Source: Clostridia bacterium
GTDB lineage: Bacteria; Bacillota; Clostridia; TANB77; CAG-508
DNA length: 64,000 bases
Direction of reading: 5' to 3'
NCBI GenBank assembly: GCA_029258515.1
Contig: JARHYK010000002.1
Coordinates: 167,216 to 231,215 of the forward strand
In this document: in pieces, positions 2,801-44,467 of the stretch
How the letters are laid out: each line of letters opens with the position of its first letter
How positions within the stretch are numbered: the first letter of the stretch is position 1
Program-made: the position numbers and the translations under genes
The notes under the pieces: generated by a model
What the model saw: the letters and a program-made list of their open reading frames with translations, nothing else
What the model was told of the DNA's origin: nothing
Databases searched by the model: none

Positions 2801-4354
2801 ATGGAAAAAATAAAAATAAAGAAAACAAATGGTATTACTTTAATTGCATTAGTAATTACAATAATAGTTTTATTAATCTTAGCAGGTGTAACAATAGCAA
2901 GTTTAAGTGGAGATAATGGAATACTTCAAAGAGCAAGTGAAGCAAAGAAAAAAACTAACAAAGAAGATGCAGAAGAATCAATAAAATTACTATTAACAGA
3001 AGTTCAAATGGAGAAAAATTTAGGAACAAAACCATTAAAAGATTTGTTAGAAGAAAAATTTGGACAAAGTAATGTAAAGCCAAATGGAGATGGATTTAAA
3101 GTAATAAAAGATGGTTATGAAGCAACAATTGATGCTAATGGTAATTTAGTAGGAGAAGTAGTAAAAGTAGGAACAGGGGGAGAAATACCAATACCACCAA
3201 CAACAGGTAAAACAGATGGGAGTTGGGATGCAACAAAAGGTGTAAATTCACCTAAATTAAAAGATAATATGAAATTAGTAACATACAGCAATGGAAATTG
3301 GGTAGAAGATACAACTAATTTAGCTTATAAATATGTTGCAGGAACAGGAAATGAAGACAATATTTCAAGTGAATGGGCAAATGCTGTTTTAGATGGAAAT
3401 TATTATGTATGGATACCGAGGTATGCGTATAAAATAGATAATAGTGTAACATATACAAGTCAAGCAGGTACAAGTCATAAAATAGATGTTAAATTTGTTG
3501 ACAATAGTGTAAAAGGAACAACAAGTGATGGGTATATAGTACATCCCGCATTTACATTTGGAACAGAAGAGCTAAGTGGAATATGGGTAGGAAAATATGA
3601 AACAAGTAGAAGTGATGCAACAGAAACTCAAGAAGGAACAGCTATAACAGTAAAAATACAACCAAATGTTAGAAGTTATAGAAATATAACTGTATCAACA
3701 ATGTTTGAAGCAGCTAAAAGTTTAAGTAAGCCAAATGTAGATGCTCATATGATGAAAAATACAGAATGGGGAGCAGTAGCATATTTGGCACAAAGTCCAT
3801 ATGGAAGAAATGGAACAGAAGTAAGTGTGAATCAATGTAGTGATTATATAACAGGAGCAGGAAAGACTAAAGGAATAAATAAAATTTATGAAAGTACAAC
3901 TTATTCACAAGCAGACATAGAACCAGAACAAAAATATGATGGAGCTATAGGTAAAATGTCAAGTACAACAGGAAATGTATATGGAGTATATGATATGTCG
4001 GGTGGAGCATTGGAGTATGTAATGGGGGTATATGGAACAGGAAATCCATTAAAACCATCAATTGGCAGTTCTTCAGGATTTGATATTAATAAATTCCCAG
4101 AAAGTAAGCATTATGATGTATATGAAAATAAAACAAATGATTATGGAAATTATGAAGGTGGTAAAGATGGTGATGCAACTAAGGAAATTCAAAATTGGAA
4201 TAATGATTTTGCTTACTTTGTGAATTCTGACCATCCGTTTTTCTTACGAGGAGGTAGATATAATAATTCTGGCAATTCAGGTTTGCTTTGCTTTACCTGG
4301 GGTAATGGTAATGCTTACGGTGATCTCGGTTTTCGTCTTTGCCTTGTGGTATAG
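2801..4354 (+). CDS. type IV prepilin-like N-terminus fused to an FGE-sulfatase/C-type-lectin-fold domain protein; candidate DGR target
   Basis: Short basic leader ending in G (MEKIKIKKTNG), then a hydrophobic helix ITLIALVITIIVLLILAGV. FGE-sulfatase domain motifs TEWGAVAY, GVYDMSGGALEYV and RGG...GFRLC are present. The C-terminal 35 codons are A-depleted and Asn/Ser/Gly/Tyr-rich. Confidence 0.75.
   Translation: MEKIKIKKTNGITLIALVITIIVLLILAGVTIASLSGDNGILQRASEAKKKTNKEDAEESIKLLLTEVQMEKNLGTKPLKDLLEEKFGQSNVKPNGDGFKVIKDGYEATIDANGNLVGEVVKVGTGGEIPIPPTTGKTDGSWDATKGVNSPKLKDNMKLVTYSNGNWVEDTTNLAYKYVAGTGNEDNISSEWANAVLDGNYYVWIPRYAYKIDNSVTYTSQAGTSHKIDVKFVDNSVKGTTSDGYIVHPAFTFGTEELSGIWVGKYETSRSDATETQEGTAITVKIQPNVRSYRNITVSTMFEAAKSLSKPNVDAHMMKNTEWGAVAYLAQSPYGRNGTEVSVNQCSDYITGAGKTKGINKIYESTTYSQADIEPEQKYDGAIGKMSSTTGNVYGVYDMSGGALEYVMGVYGTGNPLKPSIGSSSGFDINKFPESKHYDVYENKTNDYGNYEGGKDGDATKEIQNWNNDFAYFVNSDHPFFLRGGRYNNSGNSGLLCFTWGNGNAYGDLGFRLCLVV
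2828..4010 (+). repeat. dispersed repeat copy A (paralogous to 30761..31900; about 95% identical over the first ~780 nt, patchy thereafter)
   Basis: By-eye nucleotide alignment of the two pilin/FGE genes. Identity begins exactly at the codons for NGITLIAL. Confidence 0.8.
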
Positions 4355-13138: not shown

Positions 13139-13777
13139 ATGAAAGAAGTCAAAAGAAATAGATATTTAGAGATACTAAAAGATTATGTGATAAATAATTA
13201 TAAGGAATATTTAATAATAGTTATATTTTTTATTTTAGGAATATTTTTAGGTGTATTCTTTGTTAATAATATTGATGAGGAAAAAAGAATAGAGATTCAT
13301 AATTATTTAAGTAGTTTTATAACTGATTTTAAAAATATTGAGAATTTAGATTTAATGGATATTTTAAAAATAAGTATTAAAGATAAAATTGGGCTAACAT
13401 TAGGAATATGGTTTTTTGCAACTACAATTATAGGAATACCAATAGTGTTTGGGATAGTTGCACATAGAGGGTTTTGCCTAGGATATACGATATCTTCTAT
13501 TATTTCACTTATGGGATTTAATAAAGGATTTTTGTTTATTATAATATCTTTGGTAGGGCAAAATATAATATTTATACCAATATTAATATCGTTGGCTGTA
13601 AGTGGTTTTAAATTTTATAAAGCTATTTTAAAAGATAAGAGAAGAGAAAATATTAAAGTAGAATTTATAAGACATACGGTGTTTTCTATAGTTATGTTTA
13701 TAATTTTATGTTTATCAGCAATAATTGAAACATTTATATCTACAAATTTAATAAAAAGTTTTATAACGCATTTTTAG
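13139..13777 (+). CDS. spoIIM: stage II sporulation protein M-like membrane protein
   Basis: 212 aa polytopic membrane protein with SpoIIM-type topology and size, upstream of xerD. Confidence 0.55.
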   Translation: MKEVKRNRYLEILKDYVINNYKEYLIIVIFFILGIFLGVFFVNNIDEEKRIEIHNYLSSFITDFKNIENLDLMDILKISIKDKIGLTLGIWFFATTIIGIPIVFGIVAHRGFCLGYTISSIISLMGFNKGFLFIIISLVGQNIIFIPILISLAVSGFKFYKAILKDKRRENIKVEFIRHTVFSIVMFIILCLSAIIETFISTNLIKSFITHF

Positions 13778-20110: not shown

Positions 20111-20782
20111 ATGGAAATTTTGAAAGTAGAAAATTTAAGTAAAACTTATGGAAAAGGCACAACAGAAGTAAAAGCATTGGATAATGTTTCGTTTAAAGTT
20201 GAAAAAGGAGAATTTGTTGCAATAGTAGGAGCTTCTGGAAGCGGAAAATCAACATTATTACATCTAATAGGTGGAGTAGATAGACCAACTTCAGGTAAGG
20301 TGATTATAGAAGGAAAAGATATATATAAGTATAACAATGATGAACTTGCAATATTTAGAAGAAGGCAAGTAGGACTTATATATCAGTTTTATAATTTAAT
20401 ACCAATATTAAATGTTGAAGAAAATATAACACTTCCTTTGGATTTAGATAATAGAAAAATTGATAATTCAAAATTAAATGAATTATTAAAAACATTAGGA
20501 TTAGAAACAAGAAGAAAGCATTTACCGAATGAATTATCAGGGGGACAACAACAAAGAACATCAATTGGTAGGGCGATGATAACATCTCCTGCGATTATAC
20601 TTGCAGATGAACCAACAGGAAATTTAGACTCAAAAGCAAGTGATGAAATTGTAAGTTTGTTAAAAAAGTCAAATAAGGACTATAAACAAACAATAGTAAT
20701 GATTACACACAATTTAGAAATTGCAAAAATGGCAGATAGAGTTATAACACTTGAAGATGGAAAAATTGTTAAGGAGGTATAA
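20111..20782 (+). CDS. ABC transporter ATP-binding protein (MacB/BceA-like)
   Basis: Walker A motif GASGSGKST, signature LSGGQQQR and Walker B motif ILADEPT. Confidence 0.85.
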   Translation: MEILKVENLSKTYGKGTTEVKALDNVSFKVEKGEFVAIVGASGSGKSTLLHLIGGVDRPTSGKVIIEGKDIYKYNNDELAIFRRRQVGLIYQFYNLIPILNVEENITLPLDLDNRKIDNSKLNELLKTLGLETRRKHLPNELSGGQQQRTSIGRAMITSPAIILADEPTGNLDSKASDEIVSLLKKSNKDYKQTIVMITHNLEIAKMADRVITLEDGKIVKEV

Positions 20783-20786
20783 AAAG

Positions 20787-23342
20787 GTGAACGTTCTTAA
20801 CAAATTATCAATAAAAAATTTAAAATTGAATAAAAAAAGATCTATTAGTACAATTGTAGGAATTATTTTATCAGTAGCATTAATTTGTGCTGTAGCAACA
20901 ATGTGTATAAGTCTTAAAGAAACACTAGTACAAAACACAATAGCTAGGTCAGGGTATTGGCATTTAAAACTAGAGAATGTCAGTAATGAAGATATTTTAA
21001 CATTGAAAAATAATAGAGATATAAAAGATATTTATGAAACAAGCGAAATAGGGTATAGTAAGTTAGCTGAAATCAAAAATGAAGATAAGCCATATTTAAA
21101 AGTATATTCAATGGATGAAAATGTATTTAACAACCTTAAATTTCACTTAGTAGAAGGAAGATTTCCTAAAAATGAAAATGAAATAATAATAAGTTCTCAT
21201 TTGAAAAGTAATGGAGAAGTGGATAAAAAAATAGGAGATAAAATTAAGTTAAATATAGGAAAGAGAATGACATTAGATAATTGTAAATTATATTCAAGCA
21301 ATTCATATATTAAAGATAATGAGAAAATAGATGATGCAAAAGAATTTGAATTTACAATTGTTGGAATAATAGAAAGACCAAATTATGATTTTGAAAAACA
21401 TGGAGAAGCAGCATATACAGCAATTACTACTAATATAGAAAAAGATAAAAATAATATTTATATATCACTAAAAAATCCTAAAGAATATAAAACATCAATA
21501 GCTCAAATATTGGGAATAAAAGATTATTCTGAAATAGAAAAAAATTTAACAAAATTAAAATATGAAAATTTTGAAGAAAATAGTGAATTATTAAGATGGG
21601 AAGTTTTATCAGTTAGTCAAACAAGTATGAATATGATTAATTCTGTTGTAGGAGTTGTAATTTTGATAATAATATTTACAAGTGTATTTTGTATAAGAAA
21701 TTCTTTTGCAATATCTACCACAGAAAAAGTGAAAATGTATGGTATGCTTGCAAGTGTAGGAACAACAAAAAAACAAATAAGAAAAAATGTAATATTTGAA
21801 GCTTTTGCTTTAGGATTAATAGGAATACCAGTAGGAATAGTAGCTGGAATATTTGCAGTATTTATATTAATAAAAATAATAAATGTTTTGGTTGGAAATT
21901 TTTTATTTTATGATGGAGCAGGAATGGTATTTAAGACTTCCATTTTTCCTATTGTTATATCAGTATTTTTAGGAATAATAACTATATATTTATCTGCAAT
22001 AGCGTCAGCTAAGAGAGCTAGTAAAGTAACACCAATAGAAAGTCTAAGAAGTTCTAATGAAATAAAAATACAAAGTAAAAAATTAAAAACACCTAAAATT
22101 ATTAAGAAAATATTTGGAATGGGTGGAGTAATAGCATATAAGAATTTAAAAAGAAGTAAGAAAAAATATAGAACAACGGTAATATCACTAGCAGTAAGTA
22201 TTTGTATATTCATAACAATGAATGCTTTTTTGACAAATATGTTTGGAATGACGGAAAGGTATTATAAAGATTATGAATATAATATAAGAATAATGTCTAG
22301 AGATACTATTTCAGAAGAAGAATATAGAGAAATATCAAAATTAGAAAATATTGAGGAAAAATTTACAATTTATAATATGCCACAAATTAGTTCAATAGAA
22401 ATAACAGATATGTCTAAAGTTAATGTAACAAAAAAAGATGATTCAATAAATGGTAAAAATGGGGTAAGTGATACTGCAGAAAAATATTATTTAAATGTTG
22501 TAGCGTTTGATAGTAAAACATTTGAAAAATATGCTAAAAAACTTGGTATGAATTTAGATAAGACAAAAAAACAAGGTATATTATATGATGTAGATATGGA
22601 ATTTGATGAAAATGGCAAAGAAAAAGAAATTAGAACATGTAAATATAACAAGGGTGATATAATCGAAGGAAAATTATATCATAATAAAAAAGATGTAAAT
22701 ATTAAAATTGCAGAAGTAACCAATAAAGCTCCTTATGGGTTTGAAAATAGTTATTCTAATTCAGGATATTTGTTTTTAAATGTTGATGATTTTAAAGAAT
22801 TTGATTTTGAAATAACTGGAATTTTAATTCAATCTAATAATGCAAGTCAGTTTGAAGAAGATTTTTTGAAAGGACATAAAAAGTTAACTTGTGACAATCG
22901 TGATAGAATGATGAAAGAAGAAAAATCGATGAATTTAGTAATATCTATCTTTTTATATGGATTTATCACAGTAATTACTTTAATAGGAGTAACAAATATA
23001 TTTAATACAATTACATCAAATATAGAATTAAGACAAAAAGAATTTGCTATGCTTAAAAGTATTGGAATGACTAAAAAAGAATTCAATAAAATGGTGAATT
23101 TAGAAACCATTTTTTATAGTATAAAATCTTTAATTTATGGAATTATTTTAGGACTATTAGGAACATTTGCATTGTATAAATCTTTTTCAGTAAAAATAGA
23201 TAGTGGAATGTATATACCAATAAAACCAATTATAATTTCAATAGTTGCGGTATTTATTTTAGTATTTATAATAATGAAATATTCTGTAAATAAGATTAAT
23301 AAACAAAATACTATAGAGACTATTAGAAAAGAAAATATATAG
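20787..23342 (+). CDS. ABC transporter permease with two FtsX domains (BceB-like)
   Basis: About 850 aa with a ten-TM FtsX-type architecture. A GTG start 9 nt after the AAGGAGG that overlaps the ATPase stop. Confidence 0.8.
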   Translation: MNVLNKLSIKNLKLNKKRSISTIVGIILSVALICAVATMCISLKETLVQNTIARSGYWHLKLENVSNEDILTLKNNRDIKDIYETSEIGYSKLAEIKNEDKPYLKVYSMDENVFNNLKFHLVEGRFPKNENEIIISSHLKSNGEVDKKIGDKIKLNIGKRMTLDNCKLYSSNSYIKDNEKIDDAKEFEFTIVGIIERPNYDFEKHGEAAYTAITTNIEKDKNNIYISLKNPKEYKTSIAQILGIKDYSEIEKNLTKLKYENFEENSELLRWEVLSVSQTSMNMINSVVGVVILIIIFTSVFCIRNSFAISTTEKVKMYGMLASVGTTKKQIRKNVIFEAFALGLIGIPVGIVAGIFAVFILIKIINVLVGNFLFYDGAGMVFKTSIFPIVISVFLGIITIYLSAIASAKRASKVTPIESLRSSNEIKIQSKKLKTPKIIKKIFGMGGVIAYKNLKRSKKKYRTTVISLAVSICIFITMNAFLTNMFGMTERYYKDYEYNIRIMSRDTISEEEYREISKLENIEEKFTIYNMPQISSIEITDMSKVNVTKKDDSINGKNGVSDTAEKYYLNVVAFDSKTFEKYAKKLGMNLDKTKKQGILYDVDMEFDENGKEKEIRTCKYNKGDIIEGKLYHNKKDVNIKIAEVTNKAPYGFENSYSNSGYLFLNVDDFKEFDFEITGILIQSNNASQFEEDFLKGHKKLTCDNRDRMMKEEKSMNLVISIFLYGFITVITLIGVTNIFNTITSNIELRQKEFAMLKSIGMTKKEFNKMVNLETIFYSIKSLIYGIILGLLGTFALYKSFSVKIDSGMYIPIKPIIISIVAVFILVFIIMKYSVNKINKQNTIETIRKENI

Positions 23343-23473
23343 TAAAAATAGAACACATCTATAAAATTTATTAATAGATGTGTTTTTTAAAATGTTAACT
23401 ATATTGGTATTGAGTAGTATTTTAAAAAATGCTATAATAATATATGATAGAAATTTGAAAGGAAAATTCAAAA

Positions 23474-24133
23474 ATGAAAATTTTATTAATTGAAGATGAT
23501 GTAACAATTTATAAAGGGCTTAAATATTTACTAGAACAAAATAAATTTGAATTAATATATATAAATAGAGGAAAAGAAATAGAAAAATATATAGTAGAAA
23601 GTGGCATTGATTTAATTATTTTAGATATAACACTTCCAGATTGTAATGGATTTGATTTGTATAAAAATGAAATTAAAAAGTTTGATATACCCACAATATT
23701 TTTAACTGCTAAGGATGAAGAAGATGATATTGTTAAAGGATTAGAACTGGGGGCAGAAGAATATATAACAAAACCTTTTTTAAATAAAGAATTATTAGCT
23801 AGAATTAATAAAATTATTAGAAGGCAAAAGAAAAATACTATTATAACTGTTAAAAATATAAAATTTGATATAGATAAAATGGTAGTATATAGAGAAAATG
23901 AGCTTTTAAATTTAACAAGTTTGGAAATAAAAATATTATATTTATTATTTAGTAATATAAATAAAGTTGTAACAAGAGATAGTATCATAGAAAAAATATG
24001 GGAATGGACAGGAAATGATGTAAATGATAACACAGTAACTGTATATCTTAAAAGAATTAGAAAAAAGTTACAAACTGATATTATATTAACAATAAAAGGA
24101 ATAGGATATAGGATTGATAAAGATGAAAAATAA
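23474..24133 (+). CDS. OmpR-family response regulator
   Basis: Receiver domain (LIEDD...DLIILDITLPD) plus a winged-helix C-terminus. Confidence 0.85.
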   Translation: MKILLIEDDVTIYKGLKYLLEQNKFELIYINRGKEIEKYIVESGIDLIILDITLPDCNGFDLYKNEIKKFDIPTIFLTAKDEEDDIVKGLELGAEEYITKPFLNKELLARINKIIRRQKKNTIITVKNIKFDIDKMVVYRENELLNLTSLEIKILYLLFSNINKVVTRDSIIEKIWEWTGNDVNDNTVTVYLKRIRKKLQTDIILTIKGIGYRIDKDEK

Positions 24134-25340
24134 AATAGAATTAAAAAAATATGTGTATATAAGTGTGTTAACAATAATAGTAACTAGTTTTGTATTTGTA
24201 GTGATGAGTTATTTTCAGTACAAGATATATACAAATAATTTTAACAAGAAAATAGAAATGATTACACAAAAAGTTTTAAATGAGTATCCTAATATTAATA
24301 AGAATGAATTAGTTAAGCTTTTGAATTCAACTAATTTAGAAGATATAAATCTATTTAGAGAATATGGAATAGATTTAGAAAAAGATTCTATAATTCTTGA
24401 AAATGATAGATATTCAAAAAAATTTTTAATATCTAATATATCTATAATACTAGTAGGATTTATACTAATCATTGCAAATTTTCTTATATATAATAAGAAA
24501 AAAGATGATGAAATAGAAGAAATTACAAGATATATAGAGGAAATAAATAAAAGAAATTATAAATTAAATATTGATGATAATACAGAAGATGAATTATCAA
24601 TATTAAAAAATGAATTATATAAGATAACAGTTATGTTAAAAGAACAAGCAGAAAATTCTAAAGAAGATAAAATAAAGTTAAAAGATTCTTTATCAGATAT
24701 ATCACACCAATTAAAAACCCCTTTAACATCAATTTTGATTATGTTAGATAATATTATAGATAATCCAGATATGCAAAAGGAAATCAAAGAAGATTTTATA
24801 AGAGACATAAAAAGAAAAATATTAAATATTAATTTTTTGGTACAAGCATTATTAAAATTATCAAAATTTGATACAAATACAATTATTTTTATAGATAAAA
24901 AAGTTCAAGTAAAAGAAATTTTAAAAAATGCAATTAACAATATTTCAGTATTAATTGATTTGAAAGATGTTAATATTGAAATGAGTGGAGATATGGAAAA
25001 ATCAATATATTGTGATTTTAAATGGCAAGTTGAAGCTATAACTAATATTTTAAAAAATGCTGTTGAATATTCTAATATTGGAGATAAGATTAATATTAAT
25101 TTCACTCATAATAAACTTTTTTCAGAAATAATAATAAAGGATAGTGGAAAGGGAATTAGTAGGGAAGACTTAAGTCATATTTTTGAAAGGTTTTATAAAG
25201 GTAAAAATTCTTCAAATGACAGTATAGGTATAGGTCTTGCTCTTGCAAAGGCTATAATAGAAAAAGACAATGGACAAGTTTTAGTTGAGTCAGAAATAAA
25301 TAAAGGTACAACGTTTATTATAAAATATTTTAATAATTAA
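24123..25340 (+). CDS. sensor histidine kinase
   Basis: Two N-terminal TM segments. H-box DISHQLKTPLTS. HATPase motifs GIGLALAK. Confidence 0.8.
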   Translation: MKNKIELKKYVYISVLTIIVTSFVFVVMSYFQYKIYTNNFNKKIEMITQKVLNEYPNINKNELVKLLNSTNLEDINLFREYGIDLEKDSIILENDRYSKKFLISNISIILVGFILIIANFLIYNKKKDDEIEEITRYIEEINKRNYKLNIDDNTEDELSILKNELYKITVMLKEQAENSKEDKIKLKDSLSDISHQLKTPLTSILIMLDNIIDNPDMQKEIKEDFIRDIKRKILNINFLVQALLKLSKFDTNTIIFIDKKVQVKEILKNAINNISVLIDLKDVNIEMSGDMEKSIYCDFKWQVEAITNILKNAVEYSNIGDKININFTHNKLFSEIIIKDSGKGISREDLSHIFERFYKGKNSSNDSIGIGLALAKAIIEKDNGQVLVESEINKGTTFIIKYFNN

Positions 25341-25436: not shown

Positions 25437-25895
25437 ATGAATAATTTAAAAATTTATTTAAAATCAATATTGATACCAGTTATATTAGGAGGCATTGTAG
25501 GTTTTGTTATATACAAGAATATAGGTTATGATAATTTAGTAAAGCCAAACTTTGCACCACCTGGTAATATATTTCCTATTATATGGACAATATTATATAT
25601 TTTAATGGGAACATCATATGGAATATTGGAAAGTAATCAATTAATAGATAAGAAAATAGATGTATTATATTATACACAATTAATAGTAAATATGTTATGG
25701 CCTGTATTTTTCTTTACTTTTGAATTGAGGCTAATTGCTTTTATAATAATAATTATACTTACTATATTAATAGTTGTTATGATAGTAGAATTTTACAAAA
25801 AAAATAAAATAGCAGGTTTATTACAAATACCTTATTTAATATGGGTAGTTTTTGCAGGATTTTTGAATATAGGTATATATTTGCTTAATAAATAA
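25437..25895 (+). CDS. tspO: TspO/MBR family tryptophan-rich sensory protein
   Basis: 152 aa five-TM protein with the conserved W/P-rich TspO motifs (PPGNIFPIIWTILY). Confidence 0.75.
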   Translation: MNNLKIYLKSILIPVILGGIVGFVIYKNIGYDNLVKPNFAPPGNIFPIIWTILYILMGTSYGILESNQLIDKKIDVLYYTQLIVNMLWPVFFFTFELRLIAFIIIIILTILIVVMIVEFYKKNKIAGLLQIPYLIWVVFAGFLNIGIYLLNK

Positions 25896-25942: not shown

Positions 25943-26092
25943 TATATAAAATATAAAAGGAAGATAAGGGGAATTTTAAAAAAATCTCATAGAGAACAAA
26001 TAATTAGTTGTTCTTTATGAGATTAATTAAAGGCTGTTGCTATTAAATTTAATAGTAATTTTTTGAATGTTTTTATTTTTATTTGAGTTTTT

Positions 26093-26899
26093 TTAGAAAT
26101 ACTTGTCAAGTTCTTGAATAATTTTTGCAATGAGACAAAAAGATTTTAGATATGTAGGTACATTGATTACAATCCGTTTCTTGTTGTAGTTGATTTTAAA
26201 ATTAGCTGGAATCTTAGTAGATTTTAAGATTTGTGAAAGTGTTGTAGAAATCTTATTCAAATTGCTAATGTTTTCCAACAAAAATGATATTTTATATGTA
26301 TTTTCAACTAATTTAACAGAAAATACTTTTTTATAAGGGATTTGCTGATTGGCAATTTCTCGTACTTTTAGAGCTAATATTGACTCTTTTCTTGATATAT
26401 TACTTTGAGAAACACCTATTTTCTTTGCAATATCCTTTTGAGATAAGTTTCCTATTTTATAAAGCATTATAATTCTATCTTTTTCTTTTAGGCAGTTTAG
26501 AACAATACTAATTAACTCAATAAAATCTTCTTTAGCTAGTATTTTTTCGATAAAATTAGAATTAGGATCTTCAATGATGTTACTTAAAACAAATTCATCA
26601 CTATTTGTATTGGCTGTGATGGGCTCATCAATAGAAATATTTCTTGCATATTTGTTATTTTTCCGGCAGTACATAAAAAATTCGTTGTTTATGCATTTTG
26701 TGGCATATGTTGAAAAAGCAATTCTTTTTGATGCATTAAAAGTAATAGCAGCTTTTACTAATCCAAGTGTACCTATAGAAATAAATTCTTCATATTCTGA
26801 AGAATTTTTAGTTATGCCAAATTTATCTACTAGATAATAAACTAATTTCAGATTTTCTAAAACCAAATATTCTTTTTCATTGTTAAGCTTTGTATTCAT
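26093..26899 (-). CDS. sporulation-type (SigE/SigK-like) sigma-70 family factor with an unexplained ~75 aa C-terminal extension
   Basis: Region 2 (ISIGTLGLVKAAITFNASKRIAFSTYATKCINNEFFMYCRKNNKY) and region 4 (LSQKDIAKKIGVSQSNISRKESI) align with SigE/SigK. About 75 additional residues follow the HTH. The start was set to the ATG of MNTK. The ORF-track TTG start at 26968 would add a hydrophobic, pro-sequence-like segment. Confidence 0.7.
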   Translation of the reverse strand: MNTKLNNEKEYLVLENLKLVYYLVDKFGITKNSSEYEEFISIGTLGLVKAAITFNASKRIAFSTYATKCINNEFFMYCRKNNKYARNISIDEPITANTNSDEFVLSNIIEDPNSNFIEKILAKEDFIELISIVLNCLKEKDRIIMLYKIGNLSQKDIAKKIGVSQSNISRKESILALKVREIANQQIPYKKVFSVKLVENTYKISFLLENISNLNKISTTLSQILKSTKIPANFKINYNKKRIVINVPTYLKSFCLIAKIIQELDKYF

Positions 26900-27214
26900 A
26901 GTAGTAAGTCCTTTCTTTAATAATGTTGATAAAAACAAAAATAAAAATTTAATACCTCCTTTTTGCAATATTAGACAAATTGTCTATATAAGTAGTTTAC
27001 CATAAATTTCCATAAAATGCAAAAATGTTATTTTTTTTTATTTTGTAATAATAATCTAGGAAATAATTTTTTTGTTAGTAATCTTATATTATATTAATTT
27101 TATTTATTATATCGTTTATTATTATTTTTATATATCAAAACTATTGACAAAAGAATAAAAAAAATATATATTTGTACTAGCACAGATAGTACAAATAAAA
27201 ATAGGAGGTAAGTT

Positions 27215-28114
27215 ATGATAGAAATTAGAGGTTTGACAAAGTCATATGGCAAGAAAAAAGTATTAGATAAGTTAAATTGTAACATTAAAACAGGTTCGAT
27301 ATATGGCTTAATAGGTGCAAATGGTGCAGGAAAATCAACATTACTAAGAATTATTAATGATATTTTTAAAAAAGATGAAGGAAATATCTTAATAGATGGA
27401 AAAGAGGTAGAACATAATCAAGAATTAAAGCAAAAGTTAGTTTTTGTACCAGATGATTTATATTTTTTTCCTTCATATACACTAAAAGATATGGCAAAAT
27501 TTTATCAAGGCATGTATAAAAAATTTGATATGAAATACTTAGAAGAATTAGCTGGAATTTTAAAATTAAACTTAAATGAGAAAATTCAAAATTTTTCAAA
27601 AGGAATGAAAAGACAATGTAGTTTAATATGTGCAATTGCAACAAATGCTGATTATATGTTTTTTGATGAAACATTTGATGGTTTGGATCCAGTAGTAAGA
27701 AATTTAATGAAAAGAATTTTAGCAAAACAAATGGAAAGTAAAGATACTACAATAATTATGACAAGCCATAATTTACGAGAATTAGAGGATATATGTGATA
27801 ATTTAGGACTTTTATATAAAGGTGGTATTTTATTTGAAAGTGAAGTAGATGATTTAAAAACAAATATTTTTAAAGTACAAATTTCATTAAGAGAAGATTT
27901 TTCGGAAAAGGATTTTGAAAAATTAAATATTCTAAATTTCAAAAAAACAGGAAGTGTTGCAACAATGATAGTAAAAGGAGAAAAAGAAGAATATGAAGAG
28001 TATTTGAAAAATAAAAATCCACTAATATTAGACTTTTTAACATTAACACTAGAAGAAATATTTATTTATGAAATGGAGGTATTAGGTTATGAATTTAATG
28101 AAGTTATTCAATAA
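27215..28114 (+). CDS. ABC transporter ATP-binding protein
   Basis: Walker A motif GANGAGKST, signature FSKGMKRQ and Walker B motif FFDETFDGLD. GGAGG RBS present. Confidence 0.85.
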   Translation: MIEIRGLTKSYGKKKVLDKLNCNIKTGSIYGLIGANGAGKSTLLRIINDIFKKDEGNILIDGKEVEHNQELKQKLVFVPDDLYFFPSYTLKDMAKFYQGMYKKFDMKYLEELAGILKLNLNEKIQNFSKGMKRQCSLICAIATNADYMFFDETFDGLDPVVRNLMKRILAKQMESKDTTIIMTSHNLRELEDICDNLGLLYKGGILFESEVDDLKTNIFKVQISLREDFSEKDFEKLNILNFKKTGSVATMIVKGEKEEYEEYLKNKNPLILDFLTLTLEEIFIYEMEVLGYEFNEVIQ

Positions 28115-30733: not shown

Positions 30734-32233
30734 GTGAAAAAATCTAAAGAAAGAAACACAAATGGTATTACTTTAATTGCATTAGTAATTACAATAATAG
30801 TTTTATTAATCTTAGCAGGTGTAACAATAGCAAGTTTAAGTGGAGAAAATGGGATACTTCAAAAAGCAAGTGAAGCAAAGGAAAAAACTAATAAAGAAGA
30901 TGCAGAAGAATCAATAAAATTACTAGTAACAGAAGTTCAAATGGAGAAAAATCTAGGAACAAAACCATTAAAAGATTTGTTAGAAGAAAAATTTGGACAA
31001 AGTAATGTAAAGCCAAATGGAGATGGATTTAAAGTAATAAAAGATGGTTATGAAGCAACAATTGATGCTAATGGCAATTTAGTAGGAGAAGTGGAAAAAG
31101 TAGGAACAGGGGGAGAAATACCAACAACTGGTAAAACAGATGGAAGTTGGGATGAAACAAAAGGTGTAAATGTACCTAAACTAAAAGATAATATGAAATT
31201 AGTAATATATAGTAATGGAAATTGGGTAGAAGATACAACAAATTCAGCTTATAAATATGTTGCAGGAACAGGGAATGAAGATAATAATTCAAGTGAATGG
31301 GCAAATGCTGTTTTAGATGGAAATTATTATGTATGGATACCAAGGTATGCGTATAAAATAGATAATAGTGTAACATATACAAGTCAGGCAGGTACGAGTC
31401 ATAAAATAGATGTTAAATTTGTTGACACTAGTGTAAAAGGAACAACAAGTGATGGGTATATAGTACATCCCGCATTTACATTTGGAACAGAAGAGCTAAG
31501 TGGAATATGGGTAGGAAAATACGAAACGTCAGGTGATATTGCAAAACCAACAATAAAACCTGATCAAGTAGCATTAACAGATATTAATGTTGCAACGATG
31601 TTTGGAACAGCTAAAAAATTAAGTAAAATAAATATAGATGCTCATATGATGAAAAATACAGAATGGGGAGCAGTAGCATATTTGACACAAAGTTCATATG
31701 GGAGAAATGGAACAGAAGTAAGTGTGAATCAGTGTAGTAATTATATAACAGGTGCAGGGAGAGGAATTGGTAATCCAATAGATAATCCAATTTATAATGG
31801 AATATATTCAAATCCAGAACTTAATCAAAAATATAATGGAGCAATAGGACGATTATCAAGTACAACAGGAAATGTATATGGGGTATATGATATGTCTGGA
31901 GGAACAGTTGAATATGTGATGGGAGTATATGGGACAGATAAAAATAATATAAGTTTTAGGTATTCTGGTTTTGATATCAATTCTTTTCCAAAAGAAGAAA
32001 AATATTATGATTTGTATACTAAAACAAGTACAGATATAACTAATATTGGTGATAGTTTGTTTGAAACATCTGGTTGGAATAATGATAATAAATCTTTTTT
32101 TAATCTCGACTTTCCTTTTTCTAGACGTGGTGGTCGTTATAATTCTTCTAGTGATGCCGGTATTTTTTATCATAATCCTTACAATGGTGCCAATGATAGT
32201 TCGTACGGTTTTCGAGTGTGTCTTTCAGTATGA
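30734..32233 (+). CDS. type IV prepilin-like N-terminus fused to an FGE-sulfatase/C-type-lectin-fold domain protein (paralog of 2801..4354); candidate DGR target
   Basis: GTG start with an AAGGAGG RBS. Leader MKKSKERNTNG followed by ITLIALVITIIVLLILAGV. The FGE motifs are conserved. The divergent C-terminal 36 codons are A-depleted and Asn/Ser/Tyr/Asp/Gly-rich. Confidence 0.75.
   Translation: MKKSKERNTNGITLIALVITIIVLLILAGVTIASLSGENGILQKASEAKEKTNKEDAEESIKLLVTEVQMEKNLGTKPLKDLLEEKFGQSNVKPNGDGFKVIKDGYEATIDANGNLVGEVEKVGTGGEIPTTGKTDGSWDETKGVNVPKLKDNMKLVIYSNGNWVEDTTNSAYKYVAGTGNEDNNSSEWANAVLDGNYYVWIPRYAYKIDNSVTYTSQAGTSHKIDVKFVDTSVKGTTSDGYIVHPAFTFGTEELSGIWVGKYETSGDIAKPTIKPDQVALTDINVATMFGTAKKLSKINIDAHMMKNTEWGAVAYLTQSSYGRNGTEVSVNQCSNYITGAGRGIGNPIDNPIYNGIYSNPELNQKYNGAIGRLSSTTGNVYGVYDMSGGTVEYVMGVYGTDKNNISFRYSGFDINSFPKEEKYYDLYTKTSTDITNIGDSLFETSGWNNDNKSFFNLDFPFSRRGGRYNSSSDAGIFYHNPYNGANDSSYGFRVCLSV
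30761..31900 (+). repeat. dispersed repeat copy B (paralogous to 2828..4010)
   Basis: By-eye alignment with copy A. Contains a 6-codon indel (PIPPTT vs PTT) and scattered substitutions. Confidence 0.8.
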
Positions 32234-41183: not shown

Positions 41184-42110
41184 ATGGGTAAGTATCAAAA
41201 TTTTTATGCCATAGAAACTTTGAATGATGTTGAAAAAAGAAATAAAAAAAATAAAATATTAATAATATTTTTGTTGCTTGTTATTTTTAGTATTTTGTTA
41301 TTTTTAATAGTAAATGTAAATAGCAATATTAAAAAGTTAAAGCAAGCTAAGGAATATGAAAAACAAGTATTAGAGTTTAAGGAAAAATATGAAAAAGAAG
41401 AATTAAGAAAAAAACAAGAAGAAGAACAAAAAAAACAAGCTAGATTACCTAGAATAACAGAACAGGGAAAAGAAAATTTCAGAACGATTTTTCATTCTGA
41501 TAAAAAACGAGCATTTTTAACATTTGATGATGGACCATCTACTGTAACACATAAAATATTAGATACATTGGATGAAAAAGGAGTAAAAGCAACATTTTTC
41601 ATATTGGGAGTAAATGCTGAGAAAAACAAAGAATTAGTAAATCAAATGTATGAAAAAGGGCACTATATTGCAAATCATGGTTATTCACATGTGTATTCAT
41701 CAATATATTCAAGCCCACAAGCAGTTTTAGATGAGTATAATAAAACAAATGATATAATAAAAGAAGCTATTAAACAACCAGAATTTAATTCATATTTATT
41801 TAGATTTCCAGGTGGATTTTATGGTGGAAAATATGCAAATATTAAAAAAGAAGCAAATGAAATGTTAAAGCAAAATGATATTTCTAATATTGATTGGAAT
41901 TGTTTAACTGGTGATTCTGAAACAAGTAGTCCTACGCCAGAATATGTTATAAAAAGATTAAAAGAAACGTCTAAAGGAAAAAATAGTTTAGTAGTATTGA
42001 TGCATGATGCACAAGCTAAAAAAGTTACAGCAGAGATGCTACCACAAATTATAGATTATCTAAGTAGTGAAGGATATGAATTTAAGACATTTTATGATAT
42101 ATTTATATGA
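41184..42110 (+). CDS. polysaccharide deacetylase (NodB-homology) with an N-terminal TM anchor and coiled coil
   Basis: NodB motifs FLTFDDGP and ANHGYSH. Confidence 0.75.
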   Translation: MGKYQNFYAIETLNDVEKRNKKNKILIIFLLLVIFSILLFLIVNVNSNIKKLKQAKEYEKQVLEFKEKYEKEELRKKQEEEQKKQARLPRITEQGKENFRTIFHSDKKRAFLTFDDGPSTVTHKILDTLDEKGVKATFFILGVNAEKNKELVNQMYEKGHYIANHGYSHVYSSIYSSPQAVLDEYNKTNDIIKEAIKQPEFNSYLFRFPGGFYGGKYANIKKEANEMLKQNDISNIDWNCLTGDSETSSPTPEYVIKRLKETSKGKNSLVVLMHDAQAKKVTAEMLPQIIDYLSSEGYEFKTFYDIFI

Positions 42111-44467
42111 GTTATAAAATAAAATGTTTTGATTTTTGTAATTTATTTTCAATAAAGAAAGGAGCAATAAAATTGCCTAGAAAGAAGAAGACAAATTTTG
42201 AACCAGAGATAGAAGAAAACTTAAAATACATAGGATTAGATTTAGAAAAGTTACCTCAAAATATTATTGATTTTGAACCATTAAAATTTAGGCCTACAAA
42301 AACATATGACGAGAAAAAATATATACAATATAGATTTGTATCTATTCAGGATATTCAAATATTAATTTCACCAACAAATAGGTTAGAAGAATTAGAAGAA
42401 AAATATAAAAAAGCAAGACCGTTAGTAGATTATATGGATAACAAAAAAGAAGATAATTTGTTGAGATTTACAGTGTTTTTGAATATGATCAAACAAATGG
42501 ATATTGCTGAAATAGAAAAAGTAGAAGAAGAACAAAAAAAACTTGCTCAAAAACTTCCTTTTAATGTTAAATATGAAGGTAATTATTTATGGCAAATTTA
42601 TTATTCAGAGATAAGTGATAAATATTTTATGCTTGTTCCTATGGAAGAAACAAATTATTCAGCGTTTTTCTATTTATTAAAGAAGAAAATTGAAAATAAT
42701 AAAAATGATAAGATATTTGTACCTGTTTGTAATATTGGATATTCAAGAGAATTTTTTACAAAGACAGAATATAAAGATATAGAAGATTATTTATGGTTAT
42801 TTACTAAAAATTGGACATCTATTTATGAGGTGTATGATGAAAATAATAAACTTTCAGTTAATATAGTTGGAGAAACTGCAATTTATAATAATATAAAAAG
42901 TAAATATAAAATAAATATAAATAATCAAAAAGAAGCAAATCATTTTTATAAACTTTTAAAGGCATTATTTATTTTGCAAACAGAATTACCAAATTATTAT
43001 AAGTTTGATACAAATGTAGATGAGAAGGGTAATTTGCAATTTTATTTTAGAGATACACAAATTGAATATTCTAAAATGGCATCATTTATTAAAGAAGAAT
43101 TTTCTCAAGGAGAGATTTTAGAAATAGACATCTTAAAGAAAATAGAAAATGCTGATAAGAGATTAGAAGAATTAAAGCAAATAGCCTCTATGCAAGAAAT
43201 TGAATATAGAGATAAAGAAAAGCAAATATCAACTTTTTTAGAGTGTAAGAAAACATTTTTTGGGAAAGTTAAGTATTATTTTAAAATTAGTAAAAAAAAT
43301 AAAAAGAAGAAAAATCAAGAAGAGTTTGAAGAAAAAACAGTACAAGAGGATAGTTGTGAATTTTATAATGAAGAGAATGTACCTAAAGCTTTGAATTCAA
43401 AAAATCACACAATAGAAGAGCTAATAGAAAAATATAAAAATATTGATAATCAAGAGAATTTGTTAAAAAACATGGTTATGGATATAAATGCAATTAAATT
43501 AAAAAATAAAAATATGGCTAAAAAGATTGAAAATGCAACACTTTTTATAGAAGAAATTGATAATCATAAAAGAAGTATTTTTGAATTTTGGAAATATAGT
43601 AATAAAGATGCTATTAGTGTATTACCAGAAGGAGAAGAAGAAGAAATAGGAGTTGTTAAGAAAAAAATCGAAAAAGCTTTTGATTTTGAAGAAGATTTTG
43701 AAAAGTTTGGAATAAAATTAGATAATTTGCAAAGAGAAAAATTATCAATAGATGAAACAGATAGTATATATATTGCAACAACTAATATGTTAGATCTTTT
43801 GAATAAAATTCTTCTAAATGAAGTTGGACCTAAAGATGTTGAAAATGAATTAAAAAATTTAAAAAAAGAGTTGAAAGAAAAACAAGTGATTGAAACAGAT
43901 GAAGAATTTGATATCTTTGGAAGTTTAATTGAAGATAGTAGGAAGATAAAGAAAATAGGAAATAAGATACATAGAGAAATATCAAAAGACAAGTTTGATA
44001 TTCTTGAAATTACAAAAATGACTAGACAAATAGGGTTTAAGCTATCTTTGGAACAAGTTATTAAAAATATTAAAAATTCATTGGATAAGGTAAAATCTCC
44101 AGATGATTTAACTATCTATAAAGCAATTGTAGATGATAAGTTAGATGAAAATAAGATTAATGTTTTTGATATTAATTCTGAAAATGAAATGAAAAAAGCG
44201 TGCAAAAAAGAAGGAAATATGATTAATTTATATAAGATTAATTTAAAACGAGGTGAAAATATTTTAGGTTTTACAAATATAATTTATTATGATAATCAAA
44301 ATGATACTTTGCCTGCTGGAATGGATTTATCTACAAATGTTATAGTAGATATTTCAAAAATTGATTTGAATATTAAAAAGAAGAAAACTTTCCAAATTGC
44401 ATGTTTAGAAGATGAAAAAGATGAATTTTCTGATGTGATAGTTAAAAAAGTAACTGTTTATGAATAA
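42107..44467 (+). CDS. large hypothetical protein (786 aa, Lys/Glu-rich, coiled-coil-like), translationally coupled to the deacetylase
   Basis: ATGA start/stop overlap with the upstream gene. No signal peptide. No recognisable domain. Confidence 0.5.
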   Translation: MSYKIKCFDFCNLFSIKKGAIKLPRKKKTNFEPEIEENLKYIGLDLEKLPQNIIDFEPLKFRPTKTYDEKKYIQYRFVSIQDIQILISPTNRLEELEEKYKKARPLVDYMDNKKEDNLLRFTVFLNMIKQMDIAEIEKVEEEQKKLAQKLPFNVKYEGNYLWQIYYSEISDKYFMLVPMEETNYSAFFYLLKKKIENNKNDKIFVPVCNIGYSREFFTKTEYKDIEDYLWLFTKNWTSIYEVYDENNKLSVNIVGETAIYNNIKSKYKININNQKEANHFYKLLKALFILQTELPNYYKFDTNVDEKGNLQFYFRDTQIEYSKMASFIKEEFSQGEILEIDILKKIENADKRLEELKQIASMQEIEYRDKEKQISTFLECKKTFFGKVKYYFKISKKNKKKKNQEEFEEKTVQEDSCEFYNEENVPKALNSKNHTIEELIEKYKNIDNQENLLKNMVMDINAIKLKNKNMAKKIENATLFIEEIDNHKRSIFEFWKYSNKDAISVLPEGEEEEIGVVKKKIEKAFDFEEDFEKFGIKLDNLQREKLSIDETDSIYIATTNMLDLLNKILLNEVGPKDVENELKNLKKELKEKQVIETDEEFDIFGSLIEDSRKIKKIGNKIHREISKDKFDILEITKMTRQIGFKLSLEQVIKNIKNSLDKVKSPDDLTIYKAIVDDKLDENKINVFDINSENEMKKACKKEGNMINLYKINLKRGENILGFTNIIYYDNQNDTLPAGMDLSTNVIVDISKIDLNIKKKKTFQIACLEDEKDEFSDVIVKKVTVYE

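Follow-up and report, generated by a model that had tools for sequence, protein, structure and literature searches.

The minus-strand gene at positions 26093–26899 of a 64,000-nucleotide (nt) stretch of Clostridia bacterium DNA (assembly GCA_029258515.1, contig JARHYK010000002.1; the whole stretch is referred to below as the window) encodes a protein of 268 amino acids (aa) with an undescribed domain behind its sigma-4 region. This protein is probably a stand-alone accessory alternative sigma factor, with a core derived from SigE/SigK, that represents an undescribed family of gut Clostridia. The new finding is the C-terminal domain on a sigma-70-family protein, and the best by-product of the analysis is a family-wide pairing between the leader and the stop codon region of the same gene.

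Judged by its profile scores, the window protein belongs to the sigma-70 family. It passed the general sigma-70 model TIGR02937 of NCBIfam (79.7 bits; cut-off 42.9) and the Pfam model Sigma70_r2 (41 bits; cut-off 24), and its Sigma70_r4 score lay just below the threshold (22.8 bits; cut-off 24.1). The top NCBIfam models were SigE (NF006158, 124.8 bits; cut-off 339) and SigK (NF004471, 117 bits; cut-off 252); the second equivalogs of these proteins gave 117 bits (TIGR02835, SigE; cut-off 348.6) and 106.9 bits (TIGR02846, SigK; cut-off 298.65). The first-pass annotation of this DNA had stated that regions 2 and 4 match SigE/SigK closely. These are indeed the best named families, but with scores of about one third of the cut-offs the word “closely” was too strong. 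The same annotation had pointed to the absence of most of region 1.2 and of the GGSEALPP-type segment, and here the profiles agree with it: the first ~50 positions of the SigE profile are not aligned. Since the SigE alignment opens at profile position 51 and is then colinear over ~180 residues, both the pro-sequence and the GGSEALPP segment are absent (the SigK alignment opens at position 39–40).

Structure prediction with AlphaFold2 (mean predicted local distance difference test score, pLDDT, of 74 for the whole protein) was consistent with this domain order. The sigma-2 domain (residues ~5–83; 26651–26887, minus strand) resembles regions 2.1–2.4 of SigE/SigK, as indicated by Pfam, NCBIfam and matches to the PDB sigma-2 entries 8b3z and 8vjl, and its helices were predicted at residues 7–80 with a pLDDT of 75–90. 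It is followed by a linker of the same length as in SigE/SigK (residues 84–119; 26543–26650), which is predicted to be flexible (pLDDT below 50), and by the sigma-4 domain (residues ~120–185; 26345–26542), modelled at a pLDDT of 84–90 and carrying two atypical residues in its helix-turn-helix (HTH).

The extension past the region-4 HTH, previously estimated at about 75 residues, proved to comprise ~83 residues and to be a conserved domain (residues 186–268, 83 aa; 26096–26344, minus strand), present in all close homologues. The last 74 residues matched no Pfam family at E≤1 and no NCBIfam model, and comparison of a profile of the tail with PDB sequences yielded nothing meaningful. A word-indexed search of 5.8 billion proteins revealed only six full-length relatives, which are 41–57% identical to the window protein (36–46% over the C-terminal domain); four of them are longer (374–410 aa). 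A scan of species-representative genomes identified 26 loci covering residues 1–267, all in metagenome-assembled genomes (MAGs) that were obtained from the guts of humans, rabbits and chickens, are assigned to uncultured Clostridia or “Clostridium sp.” and have a GC content of 24–30%. The tail profile, seeded by the window protein, was then run against 1.84 billion cluster representatives (clusters at 50% identity) and matched 159 clusters at E≤0.001, including 91 at E≤1e-10. In 123 of the 159 clusters the domain starts at residue 150–260, behind a complete sigma N-terminus, and in most of the others it starts at or near residue 1, so that these look like fragments. Overall, the domain is represented by at least 157 clusters and almost always lies behind sigma-4. 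By sequence, then, an ~80-aa domain placed directly after sigma-4 is the hallmark of an undescribed family that includes the window protein and that, within the sampling so far, is confined to uncultured gut Clostridia of low GC content.

Modelled alone, the tail adopted a beta-beta-alpha-beta-beta-alpha order with a pLDDT of 81. Foldseek comparison of this model with the PDB gave no match at E≤0.001. The lowest E-values were obtained for YbjN-family proteins (2.7e-3, TM-score 0.47) and the best superpositions for pterin-4a-carbinolamine dehydratase/DCoH-type chains (TM-score 0.65–0.79), followed by ACT domains and the RNA polymerase subunits Rpo11/L; comparison with viral structures produced weak matches and added nothing. 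The first-pass annotation had proposed profile searches and structure prediction on the tail, with SigI_C-like folds in mind. No SigI_C or other Pfam match emerged, and the predicted fold may be described as weakly DCoH-like, as a resemblance only.

Two forms of the family were distinguished among the 123 full-length representatives. Short forms, to which the window protein belongs, end within 25 residues of the C-terminal domain (60/123), and long forms continue with tails (59/123). The tail of a long form begins with an acidic linker of low complexity, in which E, K, S and T abound (median length 54 aa), and carries one or two copies of a basic domain of ~55 aa with the pattern KGLI..RG.Y.VNK (mean charge +5.3, isoelectric point 9.8), for which only weak winged-helix matches, such as AbiEi_4 and Penicillinase_R, were found. 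The window protein ends at its C-terminal domain, and no remnant of tail coding sequence is present downstream of the gene. The idea that the charge of the C-terminal domain offsets a missing tail was rejected, as short and long forms did not differ in this respect (p = 0.22). At three loci (L009, 229–1260; L003, 7454–8840; L010, ~11185) the apparent short forms are truncated long forms, in which remnants of the winged-helix tail (RGKYVVNK, KGLITCVAR) persist past a premature stop or frameshift; these truncations could be real decay or MAG assembly errors.

The open reading frame (ORF) of the window gene is intact, without frameshift, and extends over 26093–26968 if read from an in-frame TTG or over 26093–26899 if read from an ATG (stop codon at 26093–26095). 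The TTG had been credited with adding a hydrophobic, pro-sigma-like peptide, a proposal that was not sustained; five lines of evidence place the start codon at the ATG at 26899. The NCBI record contains the exact 268-aa product as the deposited gene call, in agreement with the ORF list, and the N-termini of the six homologues line up at the window ATG (pattern MxxKLSxEKE). In the 26 genome loci the in-frame run upstream of the start varies from 1 to 59 codons and encodes no conserved peptide. The C-terminal domain begins at residue 180–189 in 95 of 157 family representatives and at residue 170–199 in 116 of them, a position expected for translation from the ATG; initiation at the TTG would move the domain 23 residues further along. 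Finally, the ribosome-binding site, GAAAGGA (26909–26915, minus strand), lies 9 nt before the ATG, and the block GAAAGGAG is nearly invariant 8–15 nt ahead of the start codon in 24 aligned loci. Given this support for the ATG, the TTG peptide is best explained as a T-rich 5′ untranslated region (UTR) read in frame: the segment concerned (26900–26968) aligns with the conserved non-coding leader of the family and is not conserved as a peptide.

Although the family proteins are only 40–55% identical, 24 loci show conservation of the nucleotide sequence itself over ~130 nt upstream of the start codon. Read towards the gene, this region comprises a promoter of the sigma-A type, a small hairpin with covariation at the predicted +1, A/GGAGG directly followed by a nearly invariant GGTATTTTAA, a T-rich stretch that varies, AACCAATATCAGTACAGAAAGGAG and finally the start codon. 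In the window, a predicted promoter TTGCAT-17-TAAACT with an upstream TG (26994–27022, minus strand) aligns with the family sequence TTGCAA/TTGAAA-17-TGnTAAAAT, which suggests that the gene is transcribed from a sigma-A-type promoter of its own. The palindrome TAGACAAtTTGTCTA (26972–26986, minus strand) is situated at the predicted transcript start and forms a hairpin in the minimum-energy fold of the window leader; RNAalifold recognised a 4-pair helix at this position, with compensatory changes across loci. Further downstream, the Shine-Dalgarno (SD)-like sequence AAAGGAGG (26955–26962) and the leader core GGTATTAAAT (together 26947–26962, minus strand) constitute a degenerate form of the family GGTATTTTAA, at a position conserved in the leader alignment. 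No start codon occurs 4–12 nt downstream of AAAGGAGG. This orphan SD had been singled out from the window sequence alone; it is present as described and occupies a conserved leader position in the family, but its number of occurrences in the window (3 vs 2.4 expected) is not above chance.

Other candidates for a function of the leader were rejected. A structured leader RNA or riboswitch found no support, with no Rfam match for the leaders of the window and locus L005, folding z-scores from +0.4 to −1.3 and only the 4-pair hairpin recovered by RNAalifold. An upstream ORF after the orphan SD could begin only at an ATT at usable spacing, and the corresponding peptides, inspected by eye, are short, Phe-rich, variable in length and frame, and unconserved. 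The spacings of possible SigE/K/F/G-type promoter elements in the leader, also inspected by eye, do not fit an autoregulatory promoter.

Comparative analysis of the family loci revealed that the leader sequence GGTATTTTAA is complementary to TTAAAATACC, which in most loci overlaps the stop codon of the same gene (GGUAUUUUAA and UUAAAAUACC are the two pairing sides in a canonical locus of the L001 or L017 type). The loci with this pairing are L001, L004–L008, L010–L013, L016, L017, L021–L023, L025 and L027, with the leader side at −34 to −65 from the sigma start. Family loci contain the leader/stop motif 38 times in 480 kb, compared to 4 times in 1045 kb for background loci. Around a 10-bp core the complementarity reaches 16–22 nt, with duplex energies of −16 to −26 kcal/mol and z-scores down to −4.8. 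When all ORF stop regions were compared as partners, that of the gene itself came first in 10 of 14 loci and second in the other 4. Within the core, 98% of the cells are paired and two pairs show compensatory double changes (G-C to A-U in L017, A-U to C-G in L025). All changes at the eight internal pairs keep pairing, being either G.U or compensatory; just three cells are unpaired, all of them at the two terminal pairs. The observed pairing values were reached by 6 of 500 shuffles. In L025, a short form whose C-terminal coding sequence is unrelated, the pairing site still lies over the stop codon. A conserved terminator hairpin is located 3′ of the stop-region partner in the family loci.

This pattern points to selection on RNA pairing within the sense transcript more than to inverted repeats acting as DNA or to pairs of protein-binding sites. 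The observation that single changes are exclusively of the G.U type likewise argues for RNA pairing and against an inverton. Inversion of the whole gene via flanking inverted repeats was also rejected on the grounds that the gene is in the ON orientation at each of the 24 loci for which upstream sequence is available. When metagenome contigs were scanned for the predicted inverted junction, 13 matches resulted, none of them sigma-related. This is a weak test, since the family members come from ENA/Logan and not from JGI and the contigs scanned may include few of their loci.

At the 3′ end of the window gene, the hairpin TTACTATTAAATTTAATAGCAA (26037–26058, minus strand) was judged homologous to the family terminator hairpin (CATTGCTATTAnnnTTAATAGCAATG) in a visual comparison with the 3′ regions of 25 loci, and it is not followed by a T-run. 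A larger AT-rich hairpin with T-runs on both strands, read from the sequence at 25979–26021, lies between the convergent TspO (25437–25895) and sigma genes and is probably a shared bidirectional terminator, which a simple terminator scan missed because of its AT-rich stem.

The gene had originally been described as a sporulation-type sigma factor. The window contains a SpoIIM gene (13139–13777, plus strand; 116 bits, equivalog cut-off 100) and a gene for a PdaB/PdaA-like polysaccharide deacetylase (41184–42110, plus strand; below the cut-off), so the organism has at least part of a sporulation programme. Elsewhere in the family, the germination protease Gpr is encoded in L013, and in L020 an apparent SigG, identified by eye and by a Sigma70_r2 Pfam match only, is encoded ~5 kb from the family member. 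As judged from these genes, the lineage sporulates or did so recently, and their presence in family-bearing genomes indicates that the family is additional to the sporulation machinery.

It is scarcely credible that the window protein is a true sporulation sigma, that is, a diverged version of SigE or SigK whose pro-protein is translated from the TTG at 26968. Such a protein would account for SigE and SigK being the top-scoring named families, for the sporulation genes of the organism, SpoIIM included, and for the hydrophobic character of the TTG extension. However, the scores remain far below the cut-offs (125 vs 339 for SigE, 117 vs 252 for SigK), the alignment from SigE position 51 leaves no processing-site region or pro-sequence, and the extension is unconserved and overlies a conserved non-coding leader. 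Moreover, neither spoIIGA nor sigG was found beside the gene, which is flanked by TspO and an ATP-binding cassette (ABC) ATPase instead of standing in a spoIIGA-sigE-sigG operon; the conserved promoter has the look of a sigma-A promoter; the family occurs in multiple copies and is in part mobile; and the apparent SigG of L020 is encoded a few kb from a family member. What stands of the original description is the relationship to SigE/SigK, not orthology to either. A further proposal, that the gene is the dedicated regulator of the divergent ABC-permease-GntR operon and of a pilin-like gene beyond it, is very improbable, even though the divergent layout itself was correctly recognised: the ABC ATPase gene at 27215 and the sigma gene share an intergenic region of 315 bp. 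A divergent ABC-2-type transporter also accompanies the short-form locus L024, and proteins with the pilin-like N-terminus are encoded within a few genes of the sigma gene in L001/L002 and L009. Nevertheless, the nearest relatives of the 640-aa permease (57% and 48% identical) belong to the same three-gene operon with no sigma gene upstream (L101–L106; apart from this, L101 keeps the downstream gene order of the window through 3HCDH and DUF4186), the 28 other sigma loci lack this cluster, and the L024 permease is not detectably related to that of the window and has no GntR gene beside it. The pilin-like genes are scattered (two in the window, one of them 24 kb off) and occur near the sigma gene in only 3 of the 29 other loci (L001/L002, L009). 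The regions upstream of 27215 and 30734 had been proposed as places to look for SigE/K-type elements. The former contains a near-consensus sigma-A promoter, TTGACA-17-TATATT (27144–27172, plus strand), and the latter, upstream of the pilin-like gene, shares no distinctive promoter with the corresponding region of its paralogue. Immediately after the operon promoter lies an inverted repeat, TTTGTACTA-n7-TAGTACAAA (27171–27195, plus strand), a probable operator for the 116-aa GntR/YtrA-like repressor that the operon itself encodes, in a layout typical of autorepression; with a promoter and a GntR-type repeat of its own, the ABC operon looks self-regulated. Gene clustering of the window and the 29 family loci identified no conserved neighbour, and the contexts vary widely (MiaB-sigma-MutS, Zip-sigma-PcrA, an integrative mobilisable element). 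A tail common to a sigma subfamily without link to its neighbours had been named beforehand as evidence against a dedicated regulator, and the sequences essentially correspond to this case, although the subfamily was previously undescribed.

Several features of the window copy weigh against the view that it is a functional accessory sigma factor. Its promoter is a poorer match to the consensus than those of the homologues and fell below the threshold of a simple scan. The leader core GGTATTAAAT and the stop region CTAAAAAAAC form a duplex of only −10.4 kcal/mol (z = −0.3, rank 32 of 58), so that the pairing has been lost while the orphan SD remains. In the recognition helix of sigma-4, N replaces the Y found in 68 of 82 family members (83%), and K stands where 74 of 82 (90%) have L, I, V or M and only one has K. 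The C-terminal domain has a charge of +10, the most extreme among 116 members (family mean −1.6), and its net charge is not conserved across the family (standard deviation 3.6). The role suggested for this domain is read from three things, namely where it lies, a weak likeness in fold and the lack of a partner gene conserved beside it. The two odd residues, together with the sub-threshold Sigma70_r4 score, indicate that the window copy may be weakened or non-functional. It may thus be a decaying relic of a long-form member, with an intact ORF but without the tail domain and the mRNA pairing, and no longer effective as a sigma factor; we consider this unlikely overall, but it is the main rival explanation. 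The drifted leader core (GGTATTAAAT vs GGTATTTTAA) and degenerate stop partner, the retention of the 3′ hairpin without its T-run and the short forms of L009, L003 and L010, which are visibly truncated long forms, would all agree with decay. Against it, the 268-aa ORF is undisrupted, sigma-4 and the C-terminal domain are modelled with pLDDT values of 84–90 and 81, respectively, short forms make up 60 of the 123 full-length representatives, and the ribosome-binding site and promoter elements are still recognisable. On the strength of the intact ORF and the confident fold, we retain a functional but diverged sigma factor as the preferred interpretation. The possibility that integrative or mobilisable elements carry the sigma cassette along and that it activates their genes, the window copy being an orphan left behind or inserted alone, is a rather remote one. 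It is suggested by three loci (L006, L007, L010) in which the sigma gene is placed between an integrase with XRE repressor and a relaxase, by tandem arrays of two or three copies in L027–L029, by highly variable neighbourhoods in which the unit from promoter to terminator is kept, and by the divergence of the sigma gene, whose closest homologue is only 57% identical, compared to 86–94% for the glycyl-tRNA synthetases of the relatives. In the window, however, the gene lies among ordinary chromosomal genes, namely those for TspO, ABC transporters and a two-component system, with no integrase, relaxase or repeats flanking it; several loci lie between core genes, e.g. MiaB and MutS; and searches of phage genomes and viral contigs turned up no family member at full length. 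A phage origin was rejected, since none of the matches in 43 phage records and 4 viral contigs covers the C-terminal domain, all ending at about residue 190.

The mobilisable elements mentioned above (L006/L007, 5430–12555; L010, 5450–11185) share the order tyrosine integrase, XRE repressor, DUF6076 protein, 84-aa ORF, sigma gene and Mob_Pre relaxase (L006, L007, L010). The tandem arrays comprise two or three sigma paralogues (L027, 10001–13451; L028, 9974–12781; L029). In L027 every copy comes with a separate promoter, 5′ hairpin, leader and terminator, and a premature stop truncates the first copy.

Some other genes of the window were also compared with the family loci. The gene at 30734–32233 (plus strand) had been labelled as a pilin and formylglycine-generating enzyme (FGE) gene. 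No FGE or sulfatase Pfam match was obtained, which leaves the second label unsupported, and for the first there is an N-terminal N_methyl match, which is sub-threshold. This gene and that at 2801–4354 (plus strand) encode paralogous, secreted-looking proteins with a near-identical pilin-like N-terminus, GITLIALVITIIVLLILAGVTIASLSG(D/E)NGIL. Proteins of L001 (1408–2244) and L009 (4347–4916) have the same beginning and diverge after ~20 residues. The pilin-like proteins carry alanine at +5 instead of the usual glutamate, and their C-terminal parts belong to no known family. Adjoining the sigma gene, at 20111–25340 (plus strand), are genes for a BceAB-like ABC transporter (ATPase and 861-aa FtsX-type permease), a response regulator and a histidine kinase. 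The same four genes, 44–78% identical and in another order, are located at L019 (14138–19456), ~3 kb from a sigma family member. A 786-aa protein without NCBIfam match (42107–44467, plus strand) is conserved at L028 (16474–18849) and L029 (15333–17834), a few kb from the sigma arrays.

According to the interpretation preferred here, that of an accessory alternative sigma factor, the protein would bind core RNA polymerase through sigma-2 and sigma-4 and recognise promoters of the SigE/K type. Its C-terminal domain would be placed upstream of the −35 element, close to the beta-flap and to the C-terminal domains of the alpha subunits, and in long forms the tethered basic winged-helix domain would add a further nucleic-acid contact. 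No anti-sigma-type neighbour was identified, although not every adjacent ORF is annotated. Because no conserved anti-sigma partner gene accompanies the family members, the C-terminal domain would act in cis as a regulatory or assembly module, like the extensions of ECF41/42 (extracytoplasmic function, ECF, sigma factors). At the RNA level, the leader, including the orphan AAAGGAGG, would pair with the stop region of its own mRNA in most family members, as in the hbs mRNA of Bacillus subtilis.

A bolder and more doubtful proposal is that these proteins form a new class of sigma-70 factors, in which a minimal core derived from SigE/K and a DCoH-like domain, often with a tethered winged-helix DNA-binding domain, combine sigma factor and activator or regulator in one chain without an anti-sigma factor, and whose mRNAs are closed by leader-stop pairing. 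If this were true, the pairing would couple translation termination to the fate of the mRNA or to re-initiation. Regulatory domains fused to sigma factors are well documented mainly for the ECF group. The present family would be a lineage derived from sporulation sigmas that has shed the pro-sequence and gained a C-terminal module of its own, often with a tethered winged-helix domain, which suggests a different way to control a sigma factor, or to extend its promoter reading, in abundant uncultured gut bacteria. The covariation-backed complementarity of leader and stop codon provides a compact and testable case of communication between the 5′ and 3′ ends of a bacterial mRNA. As regards annotation, the window gene should be given the ATG start, be named neither SigE nor SigK, and not be linked to the adjacent transporter.

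Both RNA features of the family have counterparts in known systems. The hbs mRNA of B. subtilis contains a 14-bp interaction between its 5′ and 3′ UTRs (PMC5737220). The family leader is likewise complementary to the 3′ end of its own mRNA, but its partner overlaps the stop codon. The SD-like GGAGG without a start codon recalls the STAB-SD element (Agaisse and Lereclus 1996, as cited in PMC7509114), an SD-like 5′-UTR sequence that serves not for initiation but to raise mRNA stability. In its sequence and conserved leader position the orphan AAAGGAGG corresponds to such an element, and it is possibly a STAB-SD-like stabiliser.

Comparison with other sigma factors gave a similar mixture of likeness and difference. 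SigE/K/F-like sigmas of phages (e.g. Bacillus phage vB_BmeM-Goe8) are 33–39% identical to the core over residues ~10–185, but lack the C-terminal domain. With SigE/SigK the window protein shares the sigma-2 pattern IGT.GL.KA..TF......F.TYA..CI.NE, the short linker and near colinearity over ~180 residues. It differs in its extra 83-aa domain and in having neither a pro-sequence nor a GGSEALPP/region-1.2 segment, and the family differs in being multi-copy, with variable context, a sigma-A-type promoter and no spoIIGA-sigE-sigG context. SigI of Bacillus and Clostridium thermocellum, with its SigI_C domain and RsgI partner, is also an alternative sigma factor of Firmicutes with a domain past sigma-4; the 74-aa tail of the window protein had no Pfam match at E≤1, and no RsgI-like gene was present among the annotated neighbours. 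DCoH-like folds are oligomerisation modules. The tail resembles DCoH (and also YbjN-like proteins) in its predicted element order, with the TM-scores of 0.65–0.79 given above, but there is no sequence similarity (10–16% identity) and all Foldseek E-values exceed 0.001. ECF41 and ECF42 carry a C-terminal extension (SnoaL-like or TPR) and have no adjacent anti-sigma factor, suggesting control in cis. Like them (PMC7826278), the window protein has a minimal sigma-2/sigma-4 body with a domain fused after sigma-4 and no adjacent anti-sigma gene. It does not group with ECF41/42, however: its core is SigE/SigK-like by the NCBIfam models, these being its best named families, and its extension is, by predicted fold, neither SnoaL-like nor TPR but a small beta-beta-alpha-beta-beta-alpha domain, to which many family members add a tethered winged-helix-like domain.

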